From: Spirochaetia bacterium
GTDB taxonomy: Bacteria > Spirochaetota > Spirochaetia > SZUA-6 > Bin103
Direction: 5' to 3'
DNA: 64,000 bases
Assembly: GCA_965243545.1 (NCBI GenBank)
Contig: OZ251573.1
Span: 596,217-660,216, forward strand
The stretch's first letter is position 1. Each line of letters begins with the position of its first letter. Of this stretch, positions 9,402 through 39,370 are shown one piece after another. Below the pieces are notes generated by a model that made no database searches, was not told the origin of the DNA, and was given only the letters and a program-made list of their open reading frames with translations. The translations under genes were made by a program, and so were the position numbers.

Positions 9402-11780
9402 ATGGCTACGGCACAGATCGGCAAACCGGTCCGCCGCGTCGAAGACCGGAAGTTCATAACCGGCGCCGGCCGGTACACGGACGACATCCTGCTGCCCGGG
9501 CAGACGTGGTGCGCGTTCGCGCGCAGCCCCTACGCCCACGCCGCGGTCGAGCGGGTCGACACCGCCGCCGCGGCGGCGGCGCCCGGCGTGCTTGCGGTCT
9601 ACACCGGCGCGGACGTGGAAGCCGACGGGTTGGGCGGCCTGCCGTGCGCGTGGGCGGTCGACTTCAACACCGGCGAGCCGATGAACGAGCCGCCGCACCC
9701 GGTGCTGGCGTCGAGCACGGTGCGCTACGTCGGCGACGGCGTCGCGTGCGTGGTCGCCGCGACCGCCGAGCAGGCGCAGGACGCCGCCGAGCTGATCGAG
9801 GTGACCTACCGCGAGCTGCCGGCGGTGACCGAAGTGCCGCAGGCGATCGCCGACGGGGCGCCGCAGATCCACCCGGAAGCAAAGGGCAACCTGGCGTTCA
9901 TCTGGGACCTGGGCGACCGCGAAGCGACCGACAAGGCGTGCGCGGAAGCGGCCCACGTCACCACCCTGGAGTTCGTCAACCAGCGGCTCATCCCCAACGC
10001 CATCGAGCCGCGCGCCGCGCTGGCCGACTATGACGCGGCGTCGGGGCGCTCCACGCTGTACACCTCGACGCAGAACCCGCACACGATCCGCGCGGTGATG
10101 GGCGGCGTGCTGGGGTTGCCGGAGCACAAGCTGCGCGTGGTCGGACCCGACGTGGGCGGCGGCTTCGGCAGCAAGATCTTCCATTACCCGGAAGAGGCGG
10201 TCGTCACGTGGTGCGCCCGCAAGGTCGGCCGGCCGGTGAAGTGGGCGGCGTCGCGCACCGAGAGCTTCATGACCGACGCGCACGGCCGCGACCACGTGAC
10301 CAAGGCCGACTTGGCGCTCGACGCCGGCGGGAAGTTCCTGGCGTTGCGCGTCCGCACGCAGTCGAACATGGGCGCGTATCTGTCGCTGGTGGCGCCGGCC
10401 ATCCCCACCTACTTGTACGGCACGCTGCTGCAGGGCCAATACACGACGCCGGCCATTCACGTCGAGGTGACCGCCGCCTTCACCAACACGACCCCGGTCG
10501 ACGCGTACCGCGGCGCCGGCCGGCCGGAGGCGACCTACCTGCTGGAACGGCTGGTCGATGCGGCTGCGCATGAAACCGGCGCGGCGCCCGACGAGCTGCG
10601 CCGCCGCAACTTCATCCCGCCATTCGACGGCGTCACCGAACCCGGCTATCAGACGCAGGTCGCAATGGTCTACGACAGCGGCAACTACCAGGCGGCCATG
10701 GACCGCGCGCTGGAGCTGTTCGACCTGCCGGCGTTCCGCGCCGAGCAACAGGCCGCGCGGGCGGAGGGCCGGCTGGTCGGCGTCGGCTTCTCCAGCTACA
10801 TCGAAGCGTGCGGCGTCGCGCCGTCCAAGGTGGCCGGAGCGCTCGGCGCGCGCGGCGGCTTCTACGAAAGCTCGACCGTCCGCGTCCAGCCGTCCGGCAA
10901 GGTGACGGTCTTTACCGGCACCCACTCGCACGGTCAGGGGCACGTCACCACCTTCGCGCAGGTGGTCGCCGACGAGCTCGGCATCCCGATGGAGGACGTC
11001 GAGGTCGTCCACGGCGACACCGACGTGATCCCGATGGGCAACGGCACGGCCGGATCGCGCAGCATCGCCGTGGGCGGCAGCGCCATAGCCTTGAGCCTGG
11101 GCAAGATCAAGAAGAAGGGGGCGCAGATCGCCGCTCACCTGATCGAGGCGTCGCCCGAGGACCTGGAGTACGCGGACGGCGGCTGGAAGGTGCGCGGCAC
11201 CGACCGCGGCATGAGCTTCCAGGAGGTGGCCGCGCAGGCGTACACCGTGCACAACTACCCCGACGGCGTGGAGCCGGGCCTGGAGTTCACCTCGTTCTTC
11301 GACCCCGAAAACTTCACCTTTCCGTTCGGGACGCACATAGCCGTGGTCGAGATCGACGCCGACACCGGCCAAGTCCGGCTCAAGCGGTTCGTGGCGGTCG
11401 ACGACGTCGGCAAGGTGATCAACCCGCTGATCGTCGACGGACAGGTGCACGGCGGCATCACGCAGGGCGTCGGTCAGGCGTTGCTGGAAGGCGCAGCCTA
11501 TGACGATGCCGGCCAGCTGCTCACCGGCTCCTACATGGACTACGCGCTGCCGAGGGCCGACGACGTGCCGTCCTACGAGGTCGACCGCACCGAAACGCGG
11601 TGTCCGGTCAACCCGCTCGGCGTCAAGGGCGCCGGCGAGACCGGCACGATCGGTTCCACGCCGGCGGTGGTCAACGCCGCCGTCGACGCGCTCCGGCATC
11701 TGGGGGTGCAGGACCTGCAGATGCCGCTCACACCGCAACGGGTCTGGCGCGCCATGCGCGCCAATGGAGGCGCCACGTGA
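9402..11780 (+). CDS. Molybdopterin-binding large subunit, CoxL-like form II (AYRGAGR motif)
   Basis: 792 aa, and the start is preceded by AGGAGGGAG. The active-site loop reads [10 protein letters not shown] (form-II signature) rather than the VAYRCSFR of true CO dehydrogenase. Confidence 0.85.
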
Positions 11781-12628
11781 TTCCCGCGACGTTCACCTAT
11801 CGCCGCGCCGCTTCGATCGACGAAGCGTTGCGGATGCTCGACGAATCGGGCGGCGACGCCCGATTGCTCGCCGGCGGACACAGCCTGCTGCCCGCCATGA
11901 AGCTCCGGCTCGACCGGCCGGGCGCCGTGATCGACATCAGCCGCATCGACGAGTTGGCCGCGATTGAGGAGAGCGGCGGCGGCGTGCGCATCGGCGCCGC
12001 CGCCACGCACGACCGGATCGCCTCCTGCAGCGTGGTGGGAGCGCGGGCGCCGCTGGTGGCCGCCGCCGCCGGCGTGATCGGCGACGTGCAGGTGCGCAAC
12101 AAGGGCACCATCGGCGGCAGCGTCGCGCACGCCGACCCGGCGGCCGACTACCCGGCCGCGCTGCTGGCGTCGGACGCGGTGATCCACGTGCGCGGTTCCG
12201 GCGGCAGCCGGCAGATCGCCGCGGCCGACTTCTTCGTCGACCTGTACGCGACCGCTCTGGAGGATGGCGAGATCGTGACCGCGGTGGAGGTCCCGGATCA
12301 GGGCGGCGCCGGCAGCAGCTACCGGAAGTTCCCGCATCCCGCTTCGCGGTTCGCGGTCTGCGGCGCGGCCGTGTCGGTCGTCACGGACGGCGGCCTCTGC
12401 ACGCGCGCGCGCGTGGCGCTGAACGGAGTCGCCGCCGCCGCGTTTCGGGACTCCGGTGTCGAGTCGGCGCTGGAAGGGGCGGCGCTCGACGCCGGCGCCA
12501 TTGCGGCCGCCGCGGCCAAGGCCGCCGACGGACGGGAGCTGCTCTCCGATCTGTTCGCCGACCAGGACTACCGGCGCCATCTGGCCAAGGTGTTCGTGCG
12601 CCGCGCGCTGACCGCCGCGACCGCATAG
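11777..12628 (+). CDS. FAD-binding medium subunit (CoxM-like)
   Basis: GTG start overlaps the coxL-like stop (GTGA) and has GGAGG upstream. The FAD-binding PCMH-type domain contains AGGHSLL. Confidence 0.8.
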   Translation: MIPATFTYRRAASIDEALRMLDESGGDARLLAGGHSLLPAMKLRLDRPGAVIDISRIDELAAIEESGGGVRIGAAATHDRIASCSVVGARAPLVAAAAGVIGDVQVRNKGTIGGSVAHADPAADYPAALLASDAVIHVRGSGGSRQIAAADFFVDLYATALEDGEIVTAVEVPDQGGAGSSYRKFPHPASRFAVCGAAVSVVTDGGLCTRARVALNGVAAAAFRDSGVESALEGAALDAGAIAAAAAKAADGRELLSDLFADQDYRRHLAKVFVRRALTAATA

Positions 12629-12674
12629 GGGCGGCCGGCTGGCCGGAGCGGCGCCGGCAGGGTATAGTTCTGCC

Positions 12675-13415
12675 ATGCAGGAGAACCGAGGAGCGGTAGC
12701 GGCCCTTCGCGATGAGGACCTGATAGAGCTGTTCGGCCGGCGGCTGCCGGAGCTGCTGGCGCGCCGTCCGGAACTCGAGCCGGTCATCTACCACGGGTTT
12801 CTCAAAGTATTCGCGCGTCGCGACGAGGTCGCCGTGGTGGTGGCCGAGTTGCGGGCGCTCCGTACGGAGATGGACCAGCGCTTCGACCAAGTGGACCAGC
12901 GCTTCGACCAAGTGGACCAGCGCTTCGTTCAGGTGGACCAGCGCTTCGTTCAGGTGGACCAGCGCTTCGTTCAGGTGGACGAGCGCGCCGAACGTCACGA
13001 ATCGGAAATGAAGGAGTTCCGCGCCGAAATGAATGCGCGGTTCGTCGATGTCCATCGGGCGATCGACCGGCTGGGGGCGCGCTGGGGGATCCGCAACGAG
13101 AGCCTGTTTCGACAGACGATTGCGTCACTGCTCGAACAGTCCTTCGGAGTCTCCGTCGAACAGCGCACGATCGCCGGCGAACAGTTCGACGTTCTGATCT
13201 ACGATCACCAGCACGTACTCGTCGAGATCGCCGCCAGCGTGGGGCGCACCATTCAGGCGCGGCTGGAACGCAAACGGCGGCTGTACGAAGAGTCGACCGG
13301 GATACGGCCGACCCGGGTCATTCTGGCCACGGCGTCGATCCACAGCCGGCGCGCCCACGAGCTGCGAAAGGCCGGCATCGAAGTGATAGAACCGGAGGAA
13401 ATGGACGTCGCGTGA
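12675..13415 (+). CDS. DUF3782-type protein: N-terminal heptad-repeat coiled coil plus C-terminal PD-(D/E)XK-like domain
   Basis: DQRF(D/V)QV is repeated five times, and the C-terminus reads LGARWGIRNESLFRQTIASLLEQSFG..DVLIYD..VLVEIAAS. Confidence 0.65.
   Translation: MQENRGAVAALRDEDLIELFGRRLPELLARRPELEPVIYHGFLKVFARRDEVAVVVAELRALRTEMDQRFDQVDQRFDQVDQRFVQVDQRFVQVDQRFVQVDERAERHESEMKEFRAEMNARFVDVHRAIDRLGARWGIRNESLFRQTIASLLEQSFGVSVEQRTIAGEQFDVLIYDHQHVLVEIAASVGRTIQARLERKRRLYEESTGIRPTRVILATASIHSRRAHELRKAGIEVIEPEEMDVA
12873..12977 (+). repeat. Perfect/near-perfect 21-bp tandem repeat x5 (GACCAGCGCTTCGACCAAGTG / ..GTTCAGGTG) inside the DUF3782 gene
   Basis: Read directly; it encodes the DQRFDQV heptads. 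Confidence 0.9.
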
Positions 13416-13454
13416 CCTGGGTCGCGGGATGACCTAGTCCCGGGCGACCTTCGG

Positions 13455-14741
13455 TTACGAGGGGATTTCTTGCAGGACCTCACGCATCGCCGCCAGCGCG
13501 CGGTCGATGTCTTCGTCGGTGTGGGCGGTCGACAGGTAGATCTTCTCGTACGGGCTGACGAAGAAGCCGCGCCGGATCATGCCGACGCCGAAGCGGAACG
13601 CCCGCTCCTTGTCGGCGTAGAGCATGGTCCGGTAATCGGTTATGTCCTCCGCCCCGGTGAACAACACCTGCAAGACCGGACCGTCGCCGCCGACCAGCAG
13701 CGGGATCGACAACTCGCGGCCCATCGCCTCGACCTCGGCGCGGATGCGGTCGGCCATGGCGTGCAGGCGTTCATAGACGCCCGGCCGAGCCAGTACGTCG
13801 AGCGTGGCAAGTCCGGCCGCCGCCGAGATCGGATTGCCGTTGAAGGTGCCGGACACGAAGGTCCGTTGCGGGTCTGACCGCTCGCGCCACGGATTGACCG
13901 TCTCCAGCACGTCGGCGCGACCGCAGACCGCGGCGTTGGGGTGACCGCCGCTGATCGTCTTGCCGTAGGCGGCCAGGTCCGGTACCACGCCGTACCGCTC
14001 CTGCGCCCCGCCCCAGGCGATGCGGAAACCGGTCACCACCTCATCGAAGATCAGGATGATGCCGTGCGCGGCGGTCAGCTCCCGTAGCGTCTCCAAAAAC
14101 GGCGGCTGGGGCCGGATGCACCGCTGCAGCGGTTCCACGCAGACCGCCGCCAGCTCGCCGGCGTGGCGTTCGATCAGCTCCCGCGCCATCGCCGCGTCGT
14201 TGAATGGCGACACCAGCAGATCGTCGGACAACGCCGGCGGCAGGCCGGCGACGTCGGCGACGGCGCGCGGATAGTCGCTCGGCGCCGGCGGTCGCGCGCC
14301 ATGCAGCGCAAAGTCGCTGACGCCGTGCCAGCCGCCCTCGAAGCGCAATACGCGCCGGCGGCCGGTGAAGGCGCGCGCCATGCGCACGGCAAAGGAGACC
14401 GCGTCGGAGCCGGTGCCGACGAAGCGGATCTTCTCCCCGCAGGGAGCGGCGTCGACGATGCGCTCACCCAGCTCGATGACCGGCCGGTTGAGGCCGAAGA
14501 AGGTGGCGCCGCGCTGCAGTTGCGCGGTCACCGCGGCGATCACCTCAGGATGGCAGTGTCCCAGGATCATCGGCCCGCTGCCGTTCAGAAAATCGACGTA
14601 CCGGCGTCCGTCGGCGTCGTAGAGCTTGCTGCCCTCTCCGCGCACGAACACCATGGAGACTTCGGGCGGCAGATGGAACTCCCCCATCGTGCCGCCCACG
14701 AACACCCGTCCCGCCCGTTGCAGCAGGTCCGCTTGAGCCAT
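13455..14741 (-). CDS. Class III aminotransferase (glutamate-1-semialdehyde 2,1-aminomutase-like)
   Basis: MAQADLLQRAGRVFVGG start lies inside ORF 13455..15194. Motifs IFDEVVTGFR and YGKTISGG (PLP lysine) are present. Confidence 0.8.
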   Translation of the reverse strand: MAQADLLQRAGRVFVGGTMGEFHLPPEVSMVFVRGEGSKLYDADGRRYVDFLNGSGPMILGHCHPEVIAAVTAQLQRGATFFGLNRPVIELGERIVDAAPCGEKIRFVGTGSDAVSFAVRMARAFTGRRRVLRFEGGWHGVSDFALHGARPPAPSDYPRAVADVAGLPPALSDDLLVSPFNDAAMARELIERHAGELAAVCVEPLQRCIRPQPPFLETLRELTAAHGIILIFDEVVTGFRIAWGGAQERYGVVPDLAAYGKTISGGHPNAAVCGRADVLETVNPWRERSDPQRTFVSGTFNGNPISAAAGLATLDVLARPGVYERLHAMADRIRAEVEAMGRELSIPLLVGGDGPVLQVLFTGAEDITDYRTMLYADKERAFRFGVGMIRRGFFVSPYEKIYLSTAHTDEDIDRALAAMREVLQEIPS

Positions 14742-14806: not shown

Positions 14807-15456
14807 CTAAGCGCCCAGTCGGAACGGCGGGTAGCGGTCGGTCGTCAGCAGGAACGCGTACGCGGCGACCCGGAGTCCCCAGCGCATCAGGTCCTCCAGG
14901 AACCGGAATATCCACTCGGGGAGCCGGCCGGTAAACAGGATGGCGAACCAGCCGATGATGGTCGCGATCGCGCCGGCGAGACTCAGAACGCTCAGCGCCA
15001 CGTAGTGGGGTATGGCCAGGAACCACTTGATCAGCGGCAGCACGGGATGGAGATCGTTCTGCGCGTCCGGGTACTCGATGTCGACGGTCACGGCCTGCCG
15101 CTCGTCGGTGGATGGATAGTCGTCCCGCAGCAGGAGCACGTAGGCGCTGATCCTGGCCGTGAACCGCGACACCTCCAGGTTCCAGTCGAACCACCAGCGC
15201 GGGTACTTCCGGCGGAACAGGATCATCAGCGCGGTGGCTATGAACAGGCCGGCCGCGACGAACAGCGCCGCATCGGAGCGGACCCAGCTCCCCCCGTCTC
15301 CCCGCTCGAACGGAGCAGTAGCTCCCACCAGGGAACCGATGATCAGAATCGGAATCGCCAGGATCGGCCGCACCAGCACGGTCAGCCGGTTGCGCGGCCC
15401 GTCGGGCTGCTCTACGGAGAGCGTTACCGGATAGTCCTGGGGCGATTTGTCAGCCA
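14807..15456 (-). CDS. DUF4389-like membrane protein
   Basis: Two TM segments with FLAIPHYVALSVL and WFAILFTGRLPE. GTG start with GAGGAG 7 nt upstream. Confidence 0.6.
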
Positions 15457-15528
15457 CGTCTAGCTCCTCGGAGCGGTCGTGGTTTCCTCGGCCTGCCGGC
15501 CGGGGCGACCGCAACGGCGCCTACGCTA

Positions 15529-18500
15529 TCACACCTTCGTCGCCGCGTCTACCGGTGGATCGATCATCCGGAACAGGTAGCCGTAGGAAGCGGGCTCTTC
15601 GCGGAACAGGATGTGCCGTTCACCGAAGCGCTCGCGGTCCCAGGCGCCGTCGTCGTAACGGGTGCGGAGTTCCGCGTAGGGCGTGGCGGAGACGATGAAG
15701 GAATCCAGGGTCACGTTCTTGAGCGCGGTGCGGGACGCCAGCGCCGCGGCCAGTCGCGGCAGGGACTCGTGGAGCCGGGCCTTGCCGTCGTGCCGGTACG
15801 CTTCGGCGTGCAACATGCCGTGCGGTTCGATGAAGACGATCCGCTGCGCCGCGCCCTCCTTGATCCACAGGATGAAGTCGGGATAGAAGCCGCGCTTCTC
15901 GAAGAAGCCGACGCCCTTGCCGCGGCTCAGGTTGCGCAGGAGATATATCTCCTTGCCGGCGAGAGATCGATCCCGCTCACCCAGGCAGTACGCCCGCAGG
16001 TCCATCACGAAACGCCGCTCCGCCTGGTTGAGTCCCGGCGGGTCGCTCTTCACCTTGTCGCCGCCATCCACCAACAGCGGCTGATACAGGTGACGGTCGA
16101 AGTGAACGGCCGGCAACTCCAGGCTCTCCTCACGATAGACGCGGTCCGCTTCGTCGATGAGCTTCCGAATCGCGTCGATCAGCTCCGCCTCGCTACGCGC
16201 GACCCGAACCGTGTAGTCCCGGAAGTTCGCGTCATCCTGGTCGATCTCGGCGTAGACCATGTGCTCAGATTCCCAGCGCTCCCGGCAGGCGCGATAGAAC
16301 CGGTCCGCGTAGCTCCGCAGGATGGACAGCACCGCCTCATGCAGCGCCTCGATCCCGGCAAAGGAGTGCGGCGTAACGACCGTATCTTCCGCGATCAGGG
16401 TGTAGAGCCGGTCGGGCTCGGTCGTCTCGACGATCGTGCGCGCGGTCTCCGGCCGAACGACCAGGTTGGCGTATCCCCTGGTCTCCTTGTAGTCGAGGAG
16501 CTCCAGGTAGACCCGTTGCCAATCCACCAACGCCAGGCTGCCGGCCGGAATCGCCAGGTCGCGGCCGCCGCTCATCGCCGCCGCCCGCAGGCCGCCGGCG
16601 CCGCTTTCCAGCGACTGCACCTTGAGCGAAAGGTCCACGCGCGCCCGGATTCCGGGATCGGCTTCCAGCAGGAGGAACGCCTCATCGACGAAGCTCCGGC
16701 CCTCCGGCACGCGCGGCACCACCAAGCCTTTGTTCAAGAAATCCCGGTTCGTCCTGATGCCGAGCGGCAACTCGACCACCGCATCGATCTCGATGCCTTC
16801 TTTTTCCAGGTACGCGCGAAACTGGGTCATGTAGTCGGCGCGCACGGCGAACACGTTGAGCGTTTCCAGCAGGCCGAGGCCGGCCGGGTGATTGCCCTCC
16901 GGCGCCACGCTTCCGCTCAGCGCCGCGCTCCGCTTCAGGCCGTAGCCTCGGCCGCGCAGGCGGACGCCGCGCCCGAAGAGCTGGATGATTTCCGATCCTT
17001 CCCGGCGGCCGATGTTGAGCAATCCCATGCTCGATACCCGCCACGAGTTCCAGCCCTCCATGAACTTCTTGGCGCCGATAAGCACGTCGATGGTGGTGTC
17101 CGCGCGGCCGATGGAGTCGAACAGCGATCCGCTCACCGCGTCCTCTTCCAGCGTGAACCCGGAGTCGTCTTCCTCGGCGAGCTTGCGAAAGGCGGCGGTG
17201 TCGCCGATGTAGATCAGTCCGAAGTAGTGCTCCGCGCCGCTCGCCTTCAACCCGATTTCGCCCGCGCTGCCGCGGATGGCGCACAGATGCAGGCCGCCGG
17301 CGGCGGGCGCGTGCAGCACCGCGGCGAGCAGGTCGCGGTACAGCGCCGCCGGAGGAGCGCCGGACGCGCGCAAATACTGGAATCGACCTTCGAACGCGTC
17401 CATCCCGTCCGGCGTGACCAGTCCCGACCGGCCGCCGATCAACTCTTCGATTGTCCGCACGGCCCAGCCCTGGCGGTTTTCCAGCACGCGGTGCAGGAAT
17501 CGGGCGACCGCCAGCACGTCGCTCCGCTTCCGTCCCGCCCTGGTGTAGACGGCGTTCACGGTGCCGCCGACGAAGACCCACAGCGGCCGTTCCAGGTGGT
17601 AGGGCCGCAGCTCCCCGGCCCGTTCGCGGAACACCCGTTGCTGTTCGTAGAAGGACAACAGGTTGCCGAGCAGCAACGCGTCGGTGCGCTCCTCCGCGGT
17701 CTCCTCGCGCAGGTTGAGCACCCGAAAGTCCTTGCCGTATCCGTCGCCGTGGAAGTAGCGGTAGGAGTAGTCGAAGATGATCGACTTGCCGTATTCGGCG
17801 GTGAGTTCGTCGTTGCGCGCCGCGCTCAGCGCCTGCCCGAAGGTGGCGCTGTACTCGAACGTGAAACCGGTCTGGCCCAGCGCGTCGCGGAAGCTCCGCC
17901 AAGCGGCGCCGCCGGAGCCTTTGTGCCCCTCGTCCACGAAGATCAGGTTGTTGCCCTCGAACGCCTCCACCGGCACGCGCACGCCGCCGCCGCGCTTTTC
18001 CTGCACCAGCTTGGTGATCTCGATGACGGTCACCTCGTTCTCGGCGGCGGTGAGCAGACCGCCCGCGTTCGGGTCGAAACGGCGGCAGCGGATGTCCGAG
18101 GCGGCCAGCTCCGCCGCGTGCTGCTCGCTCAACCCTTCGTTCGGCGTGATCAGCAGCACGTTGTCGAGCGGCTCCCGGTTGTAGTGCAGAAACTGCCGGT
18201 AGTTGACGTGCATGATCAGCGTCTTGCCGCTGCCGGTCGCCATCCAGAACGCCAGCTTTTTCAGGTCAGATTCGCTGAATTCGACCTTGGGAGCGGGCCG
18301 GCGCCACGCGAAGTCGTTGAGCAAGCGGAGAGTCTCGCGCCGGTGATGGAAGTAGCGGTCCAGAAACAGTTCCGTATACAGCAGCGCGGCGTGCTGGAAG
18401 TAACGCAGGGTGATCGGTTCCGGCCGCCGGGCGTTCACCGCCCCCAGGTGCCCGCGGACGTTCCGGTCGTAGCGCGCAAGGTCCGCAGCGGGCACCCGCA

Positions 18501-18690
18501 CCCGGCCGCCGCGCGCCGCCAGCAGGTGCCAGACGTGGCTGCGGCCGCTTTCGTCGAATCCTTCCTCGGCCCGCTCCAGATCGCCGAGCAGGTCACGGTT
18601 GCTGCCGTAGCCGAACAAACCGTTCAGCCACGCCAGCAGGACCAGCCGCTGCTCCAAGCCGGCGTGCTGCGCAGCGCCCCGCCGCGCCAT
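15529..18690 (-). CDS. res: Type III restriction enzyme Res subunit (superfamily-2 helicase with C-terminal PD-(D/E)XK endonuclease)
   Basis: Motif I MATGSGKTL and DExH FVDEGHKG are spaced as in EcoP15I Res. The C-terminal FYPDFILWIKEG...IVFIEPHG aligns with Res YSPDFAYVVKTAEG...FIIETK. The start lies 5 nt after the mod stop. Confidence 0.8.
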   Translation of the reverse strand: MARRGAAQHAGLEQRLVLLAWLNGLFGYGSNRDLLGDLERAEEGFDESGRSHVWHLLAARGGRVRVPAADLARYDRNVRGHLGAVNARRPEPITLRYFQHAALLYTELFLDRYFHHRRETLRLLNDFAWRRPAPKVEFSESDLKKLAFWMATGSGKTLIMHVNYRQFLHYNREPLDNVLLITPNEGLSEQHAAELAASDIRCRRFDPNAGGLLTAAENEVTVIEITKLVQEKRGGGVRVPVEAFEGNNLIFVDEGHKGSGGAAWRSFRDALGQTGFTFEYSATFGQALSAARNDELTAEYGKSIIFDYSYRYFHGDGYGKDFRVLNLREETAEERTDALLLGNLLSFYEQQRVFRERAGELRPYHLERPLWVFVGGTVNAVYTRAGRKRSDVLAVARFLHRVLENRQGWAVRTIEELIGGRSGLVTPDGMDAFEGRFQYLRASGAPPAALYRDLLAAVLHAPAAGGLHLCAIRGSAGEIGLKASGAEHYFGLIYIGDTAAFRKLAEEDDSGFTLEEDAVSGSLFDSIGRADTTIDVLIGAKKFMEGWNSWRVSSMGLLNIGRREGSEIIQLFGRGVRLRGRGYGLKRSAALSGSVAPEGNHPAGLGLLETLNVFAVRADYMTQFRAYLEKEGIEIDAVVELPLGIRTNRDFLNKGLVVPRVPEGRSFVDEAFLLLEADPGIRARVDLSLKVQSLESGAGGLRAAAMSGGRDLAIPAGSLALVDWQRVYLELLDYKETRGYANLVVRPETARTIVETTEPDRLYTLIAEDTVVTPHSFAGIEALHEAVLSILRSYADRFYRACRERWESEHMVYAEIDQDDANFRDYTVRVARSEAELIDAIRKLIDEADRVYREESLELPAVHFDRHLYQPLLVDGGDKVKSDPPGLNQAERRFVMDLRAYCLGERDRSLAGKEIYLLRNLSRGKGVGFFEKRGFYPDFILWIKEGAAQRIVFIEPHGMLHAEAYRHDGKARLHESLPRLAAALASRTALKNVTLDSFIVSATPYAELRTRYDDGAWDRERFGERHILFREEPASYGYLFRMIDPPVDAATKV

Positions 18691-18694
18691 TTCG

Positions 18695-21600
18695 TCAGGT
18701 CTCCAACGGCGCGAACATCCGCGCCTTGAACGTCGGCTCCAGCGCCTTGGCGTGCGGGATAAAGGAATCGCCGTTGACGTAGACGGAGTCCGCTCCTTCG
18801 GTCAGCCCCTGCTCGGCCACGAACTCCTTGTCCCGAATCAGATCGTCCTTCTCCCACCCTTCGGTGTCGCGCCAGATCACCACCGCCGTTCGTTCCTCGA
18901 CCGTGCCGCGGTACACCAGATACCGGCGGCCCGCGTCGTGGTGCACGCGGCGCGTCCGCACGCGCAGTCCCAGCAGGTAGTTGAAGGTCTCCGGCAGGTC
19001 CGCCGCCCGCTCGCCAGCCTGACCGTTGTCATGGACCCGCAGCCGATAATCGAACGGACGGCTGAGCTTCTCCACGTTCAACAGCGTCTCGCTCCTGCGC
19101 GTCTCCCACTTGAGCAGGTACCGGATCAGGTAATCGTCAAACCGCAGCGCCTGCTGCCCTTCCGTTTCTTCGAAACTGATGTTGTTCAGCGCGTCCTCGT
19201 AGCTCTCGATGCGATGATACTTGACGATACGCGGGCTCCGCTCCACTTCTTCCGGAGTAGCTGCGCGCTGCGGCTTGCCTCCCTTCCACGCGGGAGTAAA
19301 CGTTACCTTCTTGATTCGCGGCAACAGCACCGTATCGAAGTGCTTGCCCATCTCCACCATGACGAACTTCCGATCACCGCCGTCCGCCCGGTTGAGATCG
19401 ATCACCGCGTGGCCGGTCGTACCCGATCCGGCGAAGAAGTCGATACAGTAGGCATCGTCACCGACGTCGGCCCCGAAGATGGCGTCGCTCACGGTGTTTA
19501 TCGACTTTGGATAGGAAAAGGTATTGTGCTTGCCGATTATGTCTCCAAGCAAATTCGCTCCGAAGGTGCCCGCGTTATATCTTGGATCGACCCAATTGCT
19601 GAAAAACGCGGCGGTCCGATCCTGCACGTCAATGCGATGATAGATCGTGAACCCGTTGCTACACTGCAGCTTGCCGCTCCGAATCAGCGGCAGGCACGAC
19701 TCGTACGACCGGCGCCACACCCTCTCCTCACCCTGAGTGCCAAGCGGATAGACTCGAACATATCCGGGTCCCGTATCTTCACGCGGATAGTCTGTCCCCC
19801 TTGCCGGCGGTGGCTCGGCCCCAACCACGTTCCTGGTCCGGGCGTCTACCAGGATCGCGTAGAAGCTGTTGGGACGGGCATATCGGAAGTTGCTCTCGGC
19901 GGTGCCGCTGCGCTTGAACGGTCGAAGTTCTTCCCCATCCTTCGCGCTGCGCCCTACCAGGATCCGCGTTGAATCCTTGCTCACACAGCAGATCATGTAC
20001 TCGTGAGTATTCGCCAACAGTCGCGCCTTACCTCCTTGAGGATGGTGGTTTACGACAATCATCTCGCGCCGCAGGGCCGGATAGCGACGGTCGATCAGCT
20101 CGCAGAGATCAGCCAGTTCAAAATCATCAATCGCGATGAACAGCACCGGGTCGTCCCTGAGTAACTCCATCGCAAGAGACAGCCGGTTGTCCATCAGCGT
20201 CAACCAGGAGGAAAACAGATACTCGTTCTTGTATAGTATCTCCGAATCCCCGGTATTGTAGGGCGGATCGAGGTATGCGCACTCGATCCTGTTGCGGTAC
20301 GATTCGCGCAACAAACCGAGCGCCTGAAAGTTATCGCCATGAATCAGCAACCCATCGGTCCGTGCGTCGACGTGGTCCATCTCGTTGAACAACTCGTCGA
20401 CGAAGTCTGAATGGAAATGCCGGGTGTCTAACACGAGAGTCCGGTGAGCCTCTAGAAACGCGATCCGCCGATCGTTCCTGTCTCCGTTGCTGAACAGGTC
20501 GGCCGCGTCCTCATCGACGTGGAACAGCGTCTTCCACTCCGCCCATTGCGGGTCGCAGGCGGCGATGTCTGCATACCGGCGCCGATCTATGTTGCCGACC
20601 GTGATGCAGTAGCCGGTCTCGGTGATGAACTTGCGCTTCTCCCACAGCATCTTCTGGAAGCTCTCGATCTGGTCCAGGAAGTCGATGATGCGCCCGCCCA
20701 CCGCCTTGATCGTGCGCATGATCTGGAACCAGCCGTCGGCCATCTCCTCGCCGGCAGCCGCCATCTCGTCGAGATCGAGCACCTCGTTCTTGAGATAGAA
20801 GTCGAGCTCCTGAGCGAGGAACCCCTGCAGGTCCTTGTGGACGAAGAAGTCGGACGTGTTGCGCCGCGTGTAGCGCCGCAGGTGGTACTCGAGAACGCTG
20901 ACCGGCCGGCCGTCGCCGTTGCCGTTGCCGTTGCGGTGCCGCTCGGCGGCCAGCATCGCCGCCGCCGCGTCGGCGCCGCTCAGCCGCCGGGGGACTTCGG
21001 TCAGCGTAGCGCCGACGATCGCCTCCTGCTGACCGGTGCGGCCGTAGACGATCTCCTCCCGGCCGGTCAGCCGCCGGTACTCGAACGGAATGAGCACGCG
21101 CGCAGCATCCGCGTCCCAAGTGATCGCCTTGAACCGCGGCACAAAGAACCGCTTGTCGCCCTTGACGTCGTTCTGCTCCACGTCCGCGTGCTGCGCGCTG
21201 AAGCGCACGGTGATGCCGCTCCGCGTAAAGGTGTAATTGCGAAAGTGCTCGTCTGACTTGACGTAGTACTGGTCGCTGTTCACCCAGTGCAGATACACCT
21301 CCTCGCCATTGTATGGAATGGCGTAGCGCTGCCGCTTCGAGTAACGCCGCTTCGAGATGAAGTCGCCGTCCTGATAGTAGCGGCTGAAGAAGGCGTACAG
21401 ATGGTTGTAGATGGCGGCCTCAATCGCTTCCGGGCTGAGACCGGCGGTCCGTTGCGCCCTGAGGTACTTCCTGCCCAACGGGGTCTCTTGAAACCTGACT
21501 AAATTGCCGTCCGCGTCGAGAGCGTTTGTCCCCAATCCTTCATGTATATCCTTGACGGCCTGCTGCAGGCGCTCGGCGGCCAGCGCCTGGTCGGCGAGCG

Positions 21601-21772
21601 GGCCGTGGCGCCACTGGTCCGCGACGGTGCTCGGCAGCGTTTCCGTAATAAAGGTCTCGATCACGTCACGCTTGTAATTCATGACGCGGTAGATGCCGAA
21701 GTCCAGATCGGCGCAGTCGAACTGGAACAGCTCTCGCAGCAGTCCCTGGAATTTCTCGCTAGCGGAGCTCAC
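18695..21772 (-). CDS. mod: Type III Mod-like N6-adenine/N4-cytosine DNA methyltransferase (beta class), 1025 aa with extra N- and C-terminal domains (paralog 1)
   Basis: Motif IV CAYLDPPYNTG precedes motif I DFFAGSGTTGHAV (beta order). Starts with MSSASEKFQGLLRELFQFDCADLDFGIYRVMNYKR. Confidence 0.8.
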   Translation of the reverse strand: MSSASEKFQGLLRELFQFDCADLDFGIYRVMNYKRDVIETFITETLPSTVADQWRHGPLADQALAAERLQQAVKDIHEGLGTNALDADGNLVRFQETPLGRKYLRAQRTAGLSPEAIEAAIYNHLYAFFSRYYQDGDFISKRRYSKRQRYAIPYNGEEVYLHWVNSDQYYVKSDEHFRNYTFTRSGITVRFSAQHADVEQNDVKGDKRFFVPRFKAITWDADAARVLIPFEYRRLTGREEIVYGRTGQQEAIVGATLTEVPRRLSGADAAAAMLAAERHRNGNGNGDGRPVSVLEYHLRRYTRRNTSDFFVHKDLQGFLAQELDFYLKNEVLDLDEMAAAGEEMADGWFQIMRTIKAVGGRIIDFLDQIESFQKMLWEKRKFITETGYCITVGNIDRRRYADIAACDPQWAEWKTLFHVDEDAADLFSNGDRNDRRIAFLEAHRTLVLDTRHFHSDFVDELFNEMDHVDARTDGLLIHGDNFQALGLLRESYRNRIECAYLDPPYNTGDSEILYKNEYLFSSWLTLMDNRLSLAMELLRDDPVLFIAIDDFELADLCELIDRRYPALRREMIVVNHHPQGGKARLLANTHEYMICCVSKDSTRILVGRSAKDGEELRPFKRSGTAESNFRYARPNSFYAILVDARTRNVVGAEPPPARGTDYPREDTGPGYVRVYPLGTQGEERVWRRSYESCLPLIRSGKLQCSNGFTIYHRIDVQDRTAAFFSNWVDPRYNAGTFGANLLGDIIGKHNTFSYPKSINTVSDAIFGADVGDDAYCIDFFAGSGTTGHAVIDLNRADGGDRKFVMVEMGKHFDTVLLPRIKKVTFTPAWKGGKPQRAATPEEVERSPRIVKYHRIESYEDALNNISFEETEGQQALRFDDYLIRYLLKWETRRSETLLNVEKLSRPFDYRLRVHDNGQAGERAADLPETFNYLLGLRVRTRRVHHDAGRRYLVYRGTVEERTAVVIWRDTEGWEKDDLIRDKEFVAEQGLTEGADSVYVNGDSFIPHAKALEPTFKARMFAPLET

Positions 21773-21841
21773 GCCTTTCGCCTATGCCGGCACCATACGC
21801 CAGTCTCCGCCGCCGTGTCCAGCCGGGCCGATCATCGTCCG

Positions 21842-24748
21842 TCAGCCCTCCGGCGGCGCAAACATGCGCGCCTTGAAGACCGGCTCCAGGGCCTTGGCGT
21901 TCGGGATGAAGGAATCGCCGTTGACGTAGACGGCGTCCGCCCCCTCGGTCAAGCCCTGTTCGGCTACGAACTCCTTGTCCCGAATCAGATCGGCCTTCCC
22001 CCAACCTTCCGTCTCGCGCCAGAGCACCACGACCGTTCTCTCATCGGCCGTTCCGCAGTATACCAGATACCGGCGCCCCGCGTCCTGGTGCACGCGCCGC
22101 GTCCGCGCGCGCAGCCCCAGCAGGTAGTTGAAGGTCTCCGGCAGGTCCGCCACCCGATCACGTACCCCACCGTCAACGCGCACGCCCAGGCGATAGTCGA
22201 ACGGACGGCTCAGCTTCTCCACGTTCAACAGGGTCTCGCTCGTGCGCGTCTCCCACTTGAGCAGGTAGCGGAGCAGGTAGTCGTCAAATTGCAGCCCCGG
22301 CTGGTCTTCCGCTTCGTCGAAGACGATGTTGTTCAGCGCGTCCTCATAGCTCTCGATGCGATGATACTTGACGACTCGCGGGCTCCGCTCCGCCTCACTC
22401 CGTGCCGGCATCCGCACCGGCGTCCCTTCCCTCCACTCCGGCGCAAACGTGACCTTCTTCATTCTCGGCAGGAGCACGGCGTCGAAGTGGTCGCCGACTT
22501 CGACCAGGATGAACCGCCGCCGCGCGCCGTCCTCGCGATTGAGGCGCATGACGGCGTGGCCGGTCGTGCCCGAACCGGCGAAGTAGTCCAACACGAAGGC
22601 GTTGGTTGCTCCCTCCGTCGCGGCGCCAATCAGGTCTGCGTATAGCGACACCGGATGTGAGTACGGAAAGTCGCTCACCCCGAGGCCGTCGAGGTCCGAC
22701 TTGCCGCGGCGCGCATCCTGCATTACGGAGGTCAACTGCCGGCTCGACGCTTCGCGCAGAAACCGCTTCTGCCGCGGCTGCGTGGTGTCGTCCGCTCCGA
22801 ACAGGATCTCGCCACGCGCCATCATCCCGCGCAGCGTCTCCGGCGTCCTGGAAAATCCGTTGGGCGGCACCGGGCAAGGCCTGCCGGTCACCGGGTGAAT
22901 CAGCGGCTCGAAGAACTTGGCGTCTGTTCTCGGTTCCGGCGCCCGCAGACTGACGCTGGTGTACACCCGGCCATCATCGTCGAGATACCGGTACGCCCGT
23001 TCGCCGCCGCTCAGGGACTCATTTCGGCGAATCCAGTCGGCGAAGTGCGCTCGCGCCTGCCGCATGGACGCGGGATACTTCCGTAGCGACTCCTTCGCCT
23101 GTGCCAGGATGGAATGAACCTGGCTCGTCGGGAGGTTGAACGCCCCACTCGATCTGGTTCGCCATATCACGTACTCGTGCTGAATCGCAATTCCGCCGCC
23201 CCCGGTCATGGGATTCCTCTTGTCCCAGATCACGGTACCGGCGTTGGGAATACCGAATCGATCGAACAGCAGATGCAGGCGTTCGTACTCGTTCTCGTCG
23301 ACGTGGCAGACGAACGACCCGTGGTCGTCGAGGAGCACTTCCCCGCGGCGAATCCGGTTCTCCATCATGGTGAGCCAACTCGAATGCCGGTAGGAGTTCT
23401 TGTACAGGAAGCCGCTGGTCTGCGTGTTGTAGGGAGGATCGACGTGTATGCAGCGCACTTGGCGCCGGTATGCCGCGGACAACAGGCTCAGCGCCTGGGC
23501 GTTGTCGCCGCGAATCAGCAGACCGTCGAGCACGTCGTCAAGGTCATCGATGCTGCCGAGCAAGCGATCCGTGAAGTCGGTCGTGAAGTGCCGGGTGTCG
23601 ACTACGAGCGTCGGGTGAGCCTCCAGAAACGCGATCCGCCGGTCGTTCCGGTCGCCGTCACTGAACAGGCCGGCCGCGTCTTCGTCGACGTGCAACAATT
23701 CCTTCCACTCCGCCCACTGCGGGTCGCAGGCGGCGATCTCAGGATACCGGCTCCGGTCGATGGCGCCCGCGGTAATGCAATACCCGGTCTCCGTGATGAA
23801 CTTGCGCTTCTCCCACAGCATCTTCTGAAAGCTCTCGATCTGATCCAGGAAGTCGATGATGCGGCCGCCGACCGCCTTGATGGCGCGCATGACGCGGAAC
23901 CAGCCGTCGGCCAAGTCCTCGCCCGCAGTCTCCATCTCGTCGAGATCGAGCACTTCGTTCTTGAGATAGAAGTCGAGCTCCCCGGCAAGGAAGCCCCGCA
24001 GGTTCTTGTGGATGAAGAAGTCGGAGGCGTTGCGCCGCGTGTAGCGGCGCAGGTGGTACTCCAGCAGGCGCTCGGCGGTGAGCGTCGCGGCAGCCGTGGC
24101 CGCGCCGGCACCGCGCAGCCGCTGCGGAATCTCGCTCACGGCGACACCGTTGATCGCTTCCTGCTGCGCCGTGCGGCCGTAGGCGTGCTCCTCCCGGCGG
24201 GTCAGCGGCCGGTACTCGAACGGGATGAGCACGCGGCCCGCTTCCGCATCGCAGGTGATCGCGCCGTATTGCGGCAGGAAGAACCGCTTGTCGCCCTTGA
24301 CGTCGTTCTGCTCCACGTCCGCGTCCCGCACCGTGAAGCGTACGGTAACGCCGCTCCGCGTGAAGGTGTAATCGCGAAAGTGCTCGTCGGACTTGACGTA
24401 GTACTGGTCGCCGTTTGCCCAGTGCAGATACACCTCCTCGCCGTTGTAAGGAATGGCGTAGCGCTGCCGCTTCGAATAGCGCCGCTTCGAGATGAAGTCC
24501 CCGTCCTGATAGTAGCGGCTGAAGAAGGCAAACAGATGGTTGTAGACGGCAGCTTCTTTCGCTTCCGGGCTGCCGCCGCAGGTGCGCAACTCCTCCGCGA
24601 CGGCGCGCGGCAGCGCTTCCGTGATGAACGCCTCGATCACGTCACGCTTGTAGTTCATGACCCGGTAGATGCCGAAGTCCAAGTCGGCGCAGTCGAACTG
24701 AAACAGCTCGCGCAGCAGATGCTGGAATTTTTCGCTTGCGGAGCTCAT
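21842..24748 (-). CDS. mod: Type III Mod-like DNA methyltransferase paralog 2 (about 968 aa) with a divergent central region
   Basis: Near-identical N-terminus (MSSASEKFQHLLRELFQFD..) and C-terminus (YHRIESYEDALNNI..KARMFAP) to paralog 1. Carries CIHVDPPYNTQ and DYFAGSGTTGHAV. ORF 21842..25147 is 5'-extended by read-through; start taken at MSSASE. Confidence 0.8.
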   Translation of the reverse strand: MSSASEKFQHLLRELFQFDCADLDFGIYRVMNYKRDVIEAFITEALPRAVAEELRTCGGSPEAKEAAVYNHLFAFFSRYYQDGDFISKRRYSKRQRYAIPYNGEEVYLHWANGDQYYVKSDEHFRDYTFTRSGVTVRFTVRDADVEQNDVKGDKRFFLPQYGAITCDAEAGRVLIPFEYRPLTRREEHAYGRTAQQEAINGVAVSEIPQRLRGAGAATAAATLTAERLLEYHLRRYTRRNASDFFIHKNLRGFLAGELDFYLKNEVLDLDEMETAGEDLADGWFRVMRAIKAVGGRIIDFLDQIESFQKMLWEKRKFITETGYCITAGAIDRSRYPEIAACDPQWAEWKELLHVDEDAAGLFSDGDRNDRRIAFLEAHPTLVVDTRHFTTDFTDRLLGSIDDLDDVLDGLLIRGDNAQALSLLSAAYRRQVRCIHVDPPYNTQTSGFLYKNSYRHSSWLTMMENRIRRGEVLLDDHGSFVCHVDENEYERLHLLFDRFGIPNAGTVIWDKRNPMTGGGGIAIQHEYVIWRTRSSGAFNLPTSQVHSILAQAKESLRKYPASMRQARAHFADWIRRNESLSGGERAYRYLDDDGRVYTSVSLRAPEPRTDAKFFEPLIHPVTGRPCPVPPNGFSRTPETLRGMMARGEILFGADDTTQPRQKRFLREASSRQLTSVMQDARRGKSDLDGLGVSDFPYSHPVSLYADLIGAATEGATNAFVLDYFAGSGTTGHAVMRLNREDGARRRFILVEVGDHFDAVLLPRMKKVTFAPEWREGTPVRMPARSEAERSPRVVKYHRIESYEDALNNIVFDEAEDQPGLQFDDYLLRYLLKWETRTSETLLNVEKLSRPFDYRLGVRVDGGVRDRVADLPETFNYLLGLRARTRRVHQDAGRRYLVYCGTADERTVVVLWRETEGWGKADLIRDKEFVAEQGLTEGADAVYVNGDSFIPNAKALEPVFKARMFAPPEG

Positions 24749-24777
24749 GGCAACGCGGAACACCCGCGGCGGCGCGC

Positions 24778-26049
24778 CTACTGGTAGCCGATCGGTACGA
24801 CGTCCAGGTCTTCGATCCGGCCGTCGGCGGTGAAGCGCCACACGCCGACGTGGCCCCGGCGCAGGTCGCCGTTGGCATCCCAGTCGAGCGTGGCCGCGGC
24901 GCCGGCATAGTCGACCGTCCCGCCGGCGGCCAGGATGCGCAGGGCGCTGGCGACCCCGTCCGCGCCGGCGGTCGCCGGCGTGCCGGGGCCGCTGCCGACG
25001 GCGCGCAGCCGGTCGCGGATCGCCGCCCCGTCGGTGCTGCCGGCCGCCTGCGCGGCCAGCCCCAGGGCGATGGCGGCGTCGTATATCTCCTTGACGTAGG
25101 CGAGCACCGGGAGCTCGCCGTACCGCTGCCGAAAGGCGTCCTCCCACGCGGCCGAGGCGGCGCTGCCCGGATCGGTCGCGGCGCTCACCCCGTAGGCGCC
25201 GGCGACGTGCTCGGCCCCGACCTCCTGCGGCACCTCCAGGTCCTTGAGCGCGTCACTGAAAATGAACCGTTCGTAGAGACCCTGCTCGACCGCCTCCCGC
25301 ACGATGATCACCCCTTCGGACGCGAAGGTGACCACGACCAGCGCCTGCGCGCCGGGGGCCGCGCTCTCATGCAGCTCGTCCAGATAGGTCGGCTGCTCCG
25401 CGTCGATCGGGACGATCATGATCTGGGCGCCGTTGCCGACCAGGACCCCGCGCTCCAACCCGGACACTTCCGTTCCGGTCCAGGCGGCGGCGAAGGCTGC
25501 GGCCATCCCCCGCCCCCACGGGTCGTCGCGGTAGATCAGGGCGACGTTGTCGAACCCGCGATCGCGGGTGACGCGCGCCAGGACCGGACCCTGCGCGCTG
25601 TCGGACACGGCGGTGCGGAACAGGAAGTCACGGTCGTCGACGGTCGTCACCTGCGGCGAAGTGGCCGACGGGCTGATGGTCGGCACGCCGGCCGGGCCGG
25701 TCACCTGCTCCGCGACCGGGATGGACGTGCCGCTGGTGCCGGGGCCGACCAGCACGTGAACGCCCTCCTCCCGGACCAAGCGGCGCGCTTCCGCCACCGC
25801 CGCGGCCGGCTCCGCCGTGGCATTGCCGACGACCACCCGTACCGGTTGCCCGAACACGCCGCCGCCGGCGTTGAGATGCTCGACCGCCAGATCGAAGGAC
25901 ATGCGCATATCCCGGTCGCCGTCCCCTTCGAAGTTGAGCAGCAACCCCATCCGCAACGGCCCCGGCGATTCCTGGCCGTACGCGCCGGCCACGCCGGCGA
26001 ACAGCAGGGCCGCCAGCAGCAGGCCGGCCATGCTCGCCCGATTCCTCAT
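24778..26049 (-). CDS. Branched-chain amino-acid-type ABC transporter substrate-binding protein (LivJ/K-like, orphan)
   Basis: Signal peptide MRNRASMAGLLLAALLFAGVAGAYG followed by a periplasmic binding fold. The upstream 330 aa of ORF 24778..27057 are antisense to the ADH gene. Confidence 0.7.
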   Translation of the reverse strand: MRNRASMAGLLLAALLFAGVAGAYGQESPGPLRMGLLLNFEGDGDRDMRMSFDLAVEHLNAGGGVFGQPVRVVVGNATAEPAAAVAEARRLVREEGVHVLVGPGTSGTSIPVAEQVTGPAGVPTISPSATSPQVTTVDDRDFLFRTAVSDSAQGPVLARVTRDRGFDNVALIYRDDPWGRGMAAAFAAAWTGTEVSGLERGVLVGNGAQIMIVPIDAEQPTYLDELHESAAPGAQALVVVTFASEGVIIVREAVEQGLYERFIFSDALKDLEVPQEVGAEHVAGAYGVSAATDPGSAASAAWEDAFRQRYGELPVLAYVKEIYDAAIALGLAAQAAGSTDGAAIRDRLRAVGSGPGTPATAGADGVASALRILAAGGTVDYAGAAATLDWDANGDLRRGHVGVWRFTADGRIEDLDVVPIGYQ

Positions 26050-30898: not shown

Positions 30899-31450
30899 TT
30901 ACCAGACGCGGCGCAGGTCTACGGTCACGTCGATCGTCCCGGCCCGGAAGCGGATCGAGTCGGTGTACAGATCCGATTCGCCGTACCGGTCACCGGCGAG
31001 CAGAAAGCGCTCGATGGTGTGGCGTTCCGGATTCACCAGCCAGTACTCCGGCACCGAGAATCGCTCGTAGAGCTTCCGCTTGATCTCGCGGTCCTTCTTC
31101 GCGCTCGACGGGGAGATGATCTCGATCACCAGATCGGGCGGCCCCAGCACGCGCGACGGAGAGATCATCTGCGTGCGCTCCGCCCGGATCACGAAGATGT
31201 CCGGCACCACGACGTCGTGGTCGGAGAACTGCACGTCGGTCGGCGCGTTGAAGACGACGCCGGAACCGGTCAGCTCGATCGCCTCGTAGAGCAGAAACTG
31301 CAGGCGCCGCGAGACCGTCTGATGGTACGTGCTCGGAGACGGTGACATGTAGTGCTCTCCATCGATGATCTCGTGGATGTTGTTGTCGTCCGGGAGCAGC
31401 AGGTAGTCGTCGTACGTGAGCTTGACCGGCGACCGGGTAAGGACGGCCAT
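30899..31450 (-). CDS. Uma2 (DUF820) family PD-(D/E)XK endonuclease
   Basis: LTYDDYLLLPDD..EIIDGE..PDLVIEIISPS..EYWLVNP. Confidence 0.75.
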   Translation of the reverse strand: MAVLTRSPVKLTYDDYLLLPDDNNIHEIIDGEHYMSPSPSTYHQTVSRRLQFLLYEAIELTGSGVVFNAPTDVQFSDHDVVVPDIFVIRAERTQMISPSRVLGPPDLVIEIISPSSAKKDREIKRKLYERFSVPEYWLVNPERHTIERFLLAGDRYGESDLYTDSIRFRAGTIDVTVDLRRVW

Positions 31451-31484
31451 CACCGTTCGATCGTAGGCGAGTGCGGCGCGACCG

Positions 31485-38335: not shown

Positions 38336-38437
38336 GTCGCGCCCGCAGTCTACCGGAAACGCGCGGCGCGGCGGCGGCCGGCCGAAGCGTCCCGGGCGCG
38401 GTAGACGCGGCGGGCGACCTGCGCCACCGTAGGGGCC

Positions 38438-39367: not shown

Positions 39368-39370
39368 CCG

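Follow-up and report, generated by a model that had tools for sequence, protein, structure and literature searches.

Two tandem mod genes with unlike core cassettes and a single res gene in a Type III-type restriction-modification locus of a Spirochaetia bacterium

Can a single restriction subunit be armed by two modification subunits of different specificity? The question is raised by a Type III-type restriction-modification (R-M) locus of a Spirochaetia bacterium (assembly GCA_965243545.1), found in a stretch of 64,000 nucleotides (nt) of contig OZ251573.1 (positions 596,217 to 660,216 of the forward strand), which is referred to here as the window. The locus comprises three co-directional minus-strand genes with a strong coding signal in the G+C content of third codon positions (GC3): two tandem paralogous genes of modification (Mod) subunits, modA and modB, and one gene of a restriction (Res) subunit, res. 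The explanation that we consider rather probable is that this is a horizontally acquired, anti-phage Type III-type R-M operon of a widespread 'long' subfamily, encoding two Mods of different specificity and one Res that docks on either of them. The genes are arranged as follows (coordinates are those of the window; aa, amino acids).

24748..21842, minus strand: modA, upstream Mod paralogue, 968 aa, ATG start
21841..21773, minus strand: modA-modB spacer, 69 nt
21772..18695, minus strand: modB, Res-proximal Mod paralogue, 1025 aa, GTG start, family-standard length
18690..15529, minus strand: res, helicase-nuclease subunit by sequence, 1053 aa, beginning 4 nt past the modB stop codon

A preliminary description of this DNA gave the same order and strand, with junctions of 69 and 5 nt; the first junction holds, and the second measures 4 nt. 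The open frame of modA extends upstream to 25147, the extension overlapping the neighbouring gene, and the start adopted here is the ATG matching the start of all homologues in the alignment.

The two Mods are 57% identical overall (BLASTP) and their ends align almost unbroken: the N- and C-terminal parts are about 80% identical and the centres are unrelated, with no real similarity at roughly residues 476-715 of modA and 541-775 of modB. A codon alignment agrees with this, giving 74-93% nucleotide identity in the flanks and 30-50%, a random level, in the centre, and confirms the picture of tandem paralogues with alike ends and an unrelated centre drawn in the preliminary description. The divergence had been placed there between motif IV and motif I; the centre is indeed unrelated, but the unit that differs is a longer cassette of about 425 aa, which includes the whole methyltransferase (MTase) core and the target-recognition domain (TRD). 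Between the two cassettes nucleotide identity is 48-50%, as for unrelated sequences, and about 57 extra residues in the N domain of modB (50-107) are absent from modA. The parts of the two Mods are listed below.

23693..24748, minus strand: modA constant N flank, aa 1-352, 74-93% nucleotide identity to the modB flank, boundary taken from the mosaic Mod of the related locus L084
22394..23686, minus strand: modA exchangeable cassette, aa 355-785, with linker, MTase core and A-type TRD
23426-23440, minus strand: DPPYN motif in the modA cassette
about 22562-22582, minus strand: FAGSGTT motif in the modA cassette
21845..22393, minus strand: modA constant C flank, aa 786-968, no PDB or Pfam match
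20522..21772, minus strand: modB constant N flank, aa 1-417, including a helical segment without counterpart in modA
21452-21625, minus strand: this helical segment of modB, aa 50-107
19247..20515, minus strand: modB exchangeable cassette, aa 420-842, with MTase core and B-type TRD
20255-20269, minus strand: DPPYN motif in the modB cassette
19415-19435, minus strand: FAGSGTT motif in the modB cassette
18698..19246, minus strand: modB constant C flank, aa 843-1025, a beta-rich domain in the structural model

Both Mods keep DPPYN and FAGSGTT, and with them full catalytic motifs and full TRDs; every invariant column of an 87-sequence family alignment is present in both, which follows by construction. 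The Pfam family N6_N4_Mtase (PF01555) matches both centres (3.5e-24 for modA) with no rival family, and it is the sole Pfam match in the Mods. The arrangement is that of a beta-class N6A/N4C MTase in which motif IV (DPPY) precedes the TRD and motif I (FxGxG) follows it, as in Type III Mods, and the A-type core and TRD align to residues 90-471 of EcoP15I Mod. The PADLOC model MTase_III (PDLC03646, 1057 positions; the PADLOC R-M models are derived from REBASE) matches modA at 1.2e-220 and the other Mod at 1e-187. A mod gene lying directly upstream of res on the same strand, with the 4-nt modB-res junction, completes the Type III operon layout. Thus, the proposed Type III mod-mod-res locus, with one Res and Mods differing in the specificity-determining centre, is borne out by PF01555, PADLOC, BLASTP and the EcoP15I alignment alike.

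The Res subunit carries a Pfam ResIII match of helicase superfamily 2 (SF2) at aa 128-284 (1.3e-11) and matches the PADLOC model REase_III (PDLC03654, 1154 positions) at 1.3e-148, a model presumably built from predicted, not characterised, enzymes. The ATGSGKT and DEGH motifs are invariant in 74 Res homologues, which is the signature of an SF2 helicase/ATPase.

18220-18246, minus strand: Res Walker A motif, ATGSGKT
17923-17937, minus strand: Res DEGH motif, conserved in 74 homologues
15817-15942, minus strand: Res C-terminal block LLRN...FYPDFILW...FIEPHG, conserved in 74 homologues

Neither Res itself (phmmer) nor a 28-sequence Res profile finds any PDB chain, EcoP15I Res included, so that the helicase, first called EcoP15I-like, was overstated and shares the generic SF2 motifs alone with characterised Type III Res subunits. 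The C-terminal block had been taken for a nuclease of the PDF..IE kind. The conserved block is present (FYPDFI.W...F.EPHG, aa 935-958), with no match in Pfam or PDB, but it reads E-P-H, with His where Lys of E-x-K is expected, and a nuclease domain is therefore only putatively assigned from this variant motif. Taken together, the PADLOC, Pfam and PDB results therefore identify the Mod cores as bona fide Type III and the Res as Type III-like in architecture only.

The N- and C-terminal extensions of the Mods have no Pfam match (E up to 10); the N domain profile has no match among PDB sequences, and neither has the C domain. As to structure and biochemistry they do fall outside the described Type III Mods, as had been proposed, but they are found family-wide and are not peculiar to this locus. 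Likewise, the length of the Mods, about 350 aa over canonical ones and at first regarded as atypical, is the standard format of a long subfamily, as seen from the 1057 positions of PDLC03646 and from relatives of about 1030 aa. In a scan of one genome per species, 439 Res relatives were found across many phyla, and in 80 retrieved loci Res is normally preceded by a Mod of about 1030 aa with the same N and C domains, most of these loci having the order mod then res. Protein searches returned at least 4987 Mod relatives, typically of 1020-1045 aa, and the N domain, sought among 1.84 billion representatives, forms 2440 clusters at 50% identity, in which it is almost always N-terminal in proteins of about 1000-1090 aa. 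The locus has the features of the long subfamily covered by PDLC03646 and PDLC03654: a Mod of about 1030 aa, an N domain with FQFDCADLDFGIYR... and YYQDGDFISKRRYSKRQRYAIPYNGEEVYLHW, a C domain and a Res of about 1050 aa.

In AlphaFold models the N flank of modB is a helical and beta region of moderate confidence (predicted local distance difference test, pLDDT, about 71), and aa 920-1015 in its C flank are modelled at pLDDT 85-96. Conservation in the N domain is highest in YYQDGDFISKRRYSKRQRYAIPYNGEEVYLHW (modB aa 134-176, window 21245-21373), which is largely invariant across 87 sequences and has pLDDT below 50 in both runs, for modB and for the matching part of modA; possibly this segment binds a partner or DNA and becomes ordered in a complex only.

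Distant relatives (Res 33-44% identical) are present on haloarchaeal, Klebsiella and Escherichia coli plasmids, where they are annotated just as DNA methyltransferase and DEAD/DEAH helicase. One of them, L085 on the E. coli plasmid pEC316_2 (NZ_CP018955.1, 23508-38840; Res 33% identical), represents a layout of E. coli and Klebsiella IncF plasmids with an SNF2-related protein, a 1046-aa DNA methyltransferase and a 1120-aa DEAD/DEAH helicase; unlike it, the window locus has no accompanying SNF2 gene. No mention of the protein accessions of this E. coli plasmid relative was found in the literature searched. Across the family, accessory genes are repeatedly found inserted between mod and res. The insert of L008 (4040-4670) is an MNT/HepT toxin-antitoxin pair, and gaps of about 650 nt in L015, L019, L025, L027, L030, L046, L052, L059 and L077 hold pairs of open reading frames (ORFs) of the same size as those of L008. 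Other inserts lie at L055:8147-9985, L023:6060-9342, L026:7481-9505 and L060:3410-7394, and among them are an OLD-family AAA_15 and TOPRIM nuclease, two Fic genes, a gene of a GNAT protein, and a DndB-like gene with a D12 methylase.

The origin of the unlike centres can be traced in close relatives, where the identity matrices of flanks and cassette conflict. By flank identity modA groups with L001a and L081a, modB with L001b and L084, and L083 with L035; by cassette, modA groups with L001a, L081a, L084, L082 and L083, modB with L035, and L001b stands alone. At L084, a syntenic site with a Res 94% identical to that of the window, flanks of the modB type enclose a cassette 90% identical to that of modA, and this B-A-B mosaic, whose breakpoints lie at B 417-420 and B 842-843, accounts for 693 of 768 informative sites. 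The flanks of L001b are 94-95% identical to those of modB and the segment between B ~441 and ~850 is unrelated, making a third cassette; L083 and L035 have flanks 90-92% identical and different cassettes; L082 combines an A-type N flank and cassette with a more B-like C flank. The modB cassette itself shares 80% nucleotide identity with that of L035 only, and its GC3 of 0.716, against 0.86-0.87 in its own flanks, suggests a later import.

Among 47 Mod-Res pairs, flank identity tracks Res identity (r=0.88 for the N flank, r=0.86 for the C flank), against r=0.24 for the cassette and 0.18 for the TRD alone; sequence pairs are non-independent, which makes these values descriptive, but the gap between them is wide. 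The TRDs of the 48 Mods form 16 clusters. What is exchanged is the part that has its homologue in canonical Mods, and what stays constant are the domains peculiar to the family. As read from these mosaics, alleles have traded the cassette through homologous recombination within their conserved flanks; the shuffling that the shared flanks were thought to permit is seen directly in L084, in L001b and in the pair L083/L035. Diversification thus appears to be a matter of occasional homologous recombination over evolutionary time, not of a programmed switch.

The phase-switching arrangement suggested at first is not supported by the locus, which has no simple-sequence repeats, inverted repeats or nearby recombinase. 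Phase variation was rejected, as TRF found no frame-shifting repeat tract and only short, low-scoring arrays, one of which, in modB (period 6, 4.3 copies), stays in frame. Switching by inversion, or a shufflon, was rejected on the lack of inverted repeats of at least 25 nt in 15000-25500 and of an adjacent recombinase. Recent gene conversion between the paralogues was rejected as well: the longest exact match is 46 bp and the synonymous divergence (dS) of the flanks is about 0.38, which indicates that the paralogues are not being homogenised.

How stable, then, is the tandem state? A survey of homologues for paired mods, proposed earlier, found two Mods in 1 of the 48 related loci having at least 6.3 kb upstream of res. 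This locus, L001, belongs to a Spirochaetia metagenome-assembled genome whose Res is 95% identical to that of the window; it shares the R-M genes only (93% nucleotide identity) and lies in a different chromosomal context. The tandem state is also seen on a metagenome contig, L081, whose end holds the N terminus of a modB-type Mod, 70 nt past a modA orthologue. The orthologues L001a and L081a are 91-94% identical to modA. L035, L082 and L084, with chromosomal flanks 85-97% identical in nucleotides to those of the window, have a single Mod at the same site, and in L082 and L083 the sole Mod beside Res is modA-like and of the deletion type.

The ratio of nonsynonymous to synonymous divergence (dN/dS) of modA against L001a and L081a is 0.13-0.30 in all three segments, and that of the modB flanks against L001b is 0.14-0.17; by these sequence measures both Mods are intact and under purifying selection, and neither looks like a decaying pseudogene. 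The dS of about 0.38 between the paralogue flanks exceeds that between orthologues (0.13-0.28), which makes the duplication older than the separation of these lineages.

Three relatives show further peculiarities. Between the two Mods of L001 lies a 243-aa ORF (6206-6937, plus strand) of low G+C by eye, with a weak nucleoside 2-deoxyribosyltransferase-like match (PF05014, 1.4e-5, under the Pfam cutoff); the corresponding junction of the window is just 69 nt. The Res of L082 (5694-8617) is without residues ~886-957, exactly the PDF...EPHG block, and is called as genes of 914 and 62 aa; it has the appearance of a Res that has lost its nuclease, next to an intact Mod. In L083, a modA-like mod (10040-12907, plus strand) is convergent with Res (12894-13691, minus strand), their 3' ends overlapping, the usual order being mod then res.

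The explanation favoured here would work as follows. The long-subfamily Mod may be viewed as a canonical Type III Mod core (about 425 aa) placed between family-specific N (about 420 aa) and C (about 180 aa) domains. In EcoP15I, the N-terminal domain (NTD) and the MTase domain form the Mod dimer, and the C-terminal domain (CTD) of one Mod binds Res (PMC4490356). By this analogy, and because they are inherited together with Res, the end domains probably provide the Mod-Mod and Mod-Res contacts as a constant dimerisation and docking scaffold. A tandem duplication of mod took place in this lineage, and the copies carry different cassettes; most likely the two Mods dimerise separately, each methylating an asymmetric site of its own, and the shared end domains would let the single Res, probably translationally coupled to modB, dock on either of them. 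With one motor-nuclease the cell might in this way have two specificities of methylation and restriction, and it is plausible that both Mods arm the single Res. A bolder form of the same idea, that the N and C domains are a docking scaffold co-evolving with the divergent Res into which any core cassette can be plugged, and that the two Mods arm Res simultaneously, giving two specificities or hybrid ones from heterodimers, is offered only tentatively.

Several points weigh against the favoured explanation. The Res nuclease motif is E-P-H instead of E-x-K. The family-typical 4-nt junction with res belongs to modB alone, and a promoter-like site lies between the mods; therefore, modA could act without Res. 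In addition, modA is without the 57-aa N-domain segment found in most of the family, and in the one tandem case so far published just one of the two Mods could be linked to a motif (PMC9465063). The docking role of the end domains comes from analogy and from co-inheritance with Res, a pattern that genetic linkage alone would give as well, and the N-domain models are of moderate confidence (pLDDT about 71), with aa 134-176 poorly modelled.

In the main rival, to which we give roughly one chance in a handful or slightly better, only modB partners Res, and modA would be in effect a solitary MTase and a donor of cassettes; it might be a left-over allele or one kept in reserve, act in epigenetic regulation, or protect against a related restriction system in the community. 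The modB-res spacing of 4 nt is that of single-mod loci, whereas modA lies 69 nt away behind a promoter-like site that is conserved in L081. This site (TGGACA-18-TATGGT, 21821..21792) is the sole sigma-70-like match of the region; with 1.0 such match expected by chance it is alone not significant and serves as a lead only, although the spacer and both promoter-like hexamers are kept at the L081 junction. It also agrees with a solitary modA that, across relatives, the modB backbone, not that of modA, tracks Res closest, that modA bears the N-domain deletion, that an unrelated gene separates the two mods in L001, and that in Mycoplasma agalactiae the motif was given to the Res-proximal Mod alone (PMC9465063); moreover, no unprotected second Res specificity is needed. 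This rival has difficulty with the end domains of modA, which co-vary with Res family-wide and are under purifying selection (dN/dS 0.15-0.30), and with L082 and L083, in which Mods of the deletion type with the A cassette are the sole Mod beside Res.

The two further alternatives are less likely than docking of Res on either Mod, because a single Mod is the norm of the family, modA has another partner cassette in L001, and both copies are under purifying selection. A modA-modB heterodimer, obligate or preferred, in which the division of labour of EcoP15I (one protomer reads the site, the other methylates; PMC4490356) is hard-wired to give a hybrid specificity, is improbable. The different roles of the two EcoP15I protomers (PMC4490356) and the shared end domains, which could mediate dimerisation, speak for it. 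However, 47 of the 48 related loci carry a single Mod, so that homodimers are the family norm; L001 has the same modA with another cassette downstream, and this speaks against co-adaptation to a particular partner; both copies have full catalytic motifs and TRDs; and the MTase cores, part of the EcoP15I dimer interface, differ between the cassettes. A literature search for Mod heterodimers found nothing relevant. Weakest, if by little, is the view of the tandem state as a neutral transient of allele replacement, formed by unequal recombination of an incoming and a resident allele with one copy being lost, for although the chromosomal site holds a single Mod in the syntenic L035, L082 and L084, and L082 resembles the product of a deletion between tandem copies, the tandem state occurs in three separate assemblies (window, L001, L081) at dS of 0.13-0.28 with intact genes and dN/dS well below 1, and the paralogue dS of about 0.38 points to an old duplication.

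The overall G+C content of the window is about 69%, falling to 0.61-0.67 in the 16-24 kb region, and the low-G+C locus is bordered by metabolic and transport genes of an ordinary kind: a periplasmic binding protein gene upstream, and a DUF4389 gene, an aminotransferase and xanthine-dehydrogenase-family subunits downstream. BREX, DISARM and other defence systems were rejected, since PADLOC returned R-M models only, apart from two PbeA matches (E about 0.002-0.003), and the neighbours are metabolic and transport genes. The region is flanked by two small genes of nuclease families, one for a DUF3782 and PDDEXK_10 protein (12675-13415, plus strand) and one for an Uma2-family putative endonuclease (30899-31531, minus strand); both are also found in the syntenic relatives L082, L084 and L081, and are therefore probably resident and outside the R-M island. 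The nearest integrase-family gene, of the phage integrase family (41734-42792, minus strand), is about 17 kb from the R-M locus; together with a DDE transposase gene (44929-46416, plus strand) it lies in or beside a second low-G+C stretch at 44-50 kb (G+C 0.61-0.65), which is possibly another mobile insertion, not related to the R-M locus. A 1615-aa ORF (34955-39802, minus strand) has as its sole Pfam match a short PcRGLX-like RIFT barrel (1.8e-6) and is otherwise unannotated.

Tandem mod-mod-res loci, TRD shuffling and defence islands are established concepts, and the finding therefore extends rather than overturns current understanding. What is new is the tandem arrangement in the long subfamily without phase-variation tracts; as far as sequences tell, the exchange of an entire canonical Mod core as one module, and large extra domains behaving as a Res-linked constant scaffold, would be new as well. 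In this large, phylogenetically broad family, structural and biochemical descriptions do not extend to some 600 of the ~1030 residues of Mod or to the greater part of Res, and the clean modular split between end domains and cassette gives testable predictions for specificity engineering by cassette swap. If both Mods do load onto one Res, this would be a simple natural multiplexing of Type III specificity, documented so far mainly for Type I, and if the scaffold reading holds, a Type III counterpart of the multi-hsdS Type I systems, built on domains without a known fold.

Compared with EcoP15I and EcoP1I (Mod2Res1-2), the locus has the same order of mod then res, a beta-class amino-MTase with the TRD between motif IV and motif I, and a Res in which an SF2 ATPase lies towards the N terminus and a PD...E block towards the C terminus. 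Type III systems are further defined by an asymmetric site, by hemimethylation and by ATP-dependent cleavage ~25 bp away from one of two sites in inverse orientation. The locus differs in having an N domain of about 420 aa instead of a 60-aa NTD, an unrelated C domain of about 180 aa instead of the CTD, a Res without detectable sequence similarity to EcoP15I Res and with the E-P-H motif, and two mod genes.

In M. agalactiae 5632, too, a single res is preceded by two tandem mods (M1/M2.Mag5632ORF1570P in REBASE, MAGa1570/MAGa1580), whose 5' and 3' parts are conserved and whose central TRD varies, and its sister strains have a single mod at the same locus (PMC9465063). Those mods are described as ordinary phase-variable genes, which have (GA)n tracts and are often frameshifted (PMC9465063), in contrast to the long-family Mods described here, which have no repeat tracts and are both intact and under selection.

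The mod of Haemophilus influenzae (PMC1557822) and the 'domain movement' of Helicobacter pylori (PMC3467074) resemble the present case in a hypervariable centre, conserved flanks and res, and mosaics formed by recombination. The unit exchanged here is about 425 aa long and includes the whole MTase core, not the TRD alone, the constant flanks are large extra domains, and the upstream paralogue has a cassette type that is also found, in a relative, within the Res-proximal backbone.

Type I loci with several hsdS genes on one hsdM/hsdR differ in protein architecture. Site-specific inversion, the switch of many hsdS arrays, has left no sign in the window locus. The likeness to them is a functional analogy only, in that several specificity modules are combined with one motor-nuclease.

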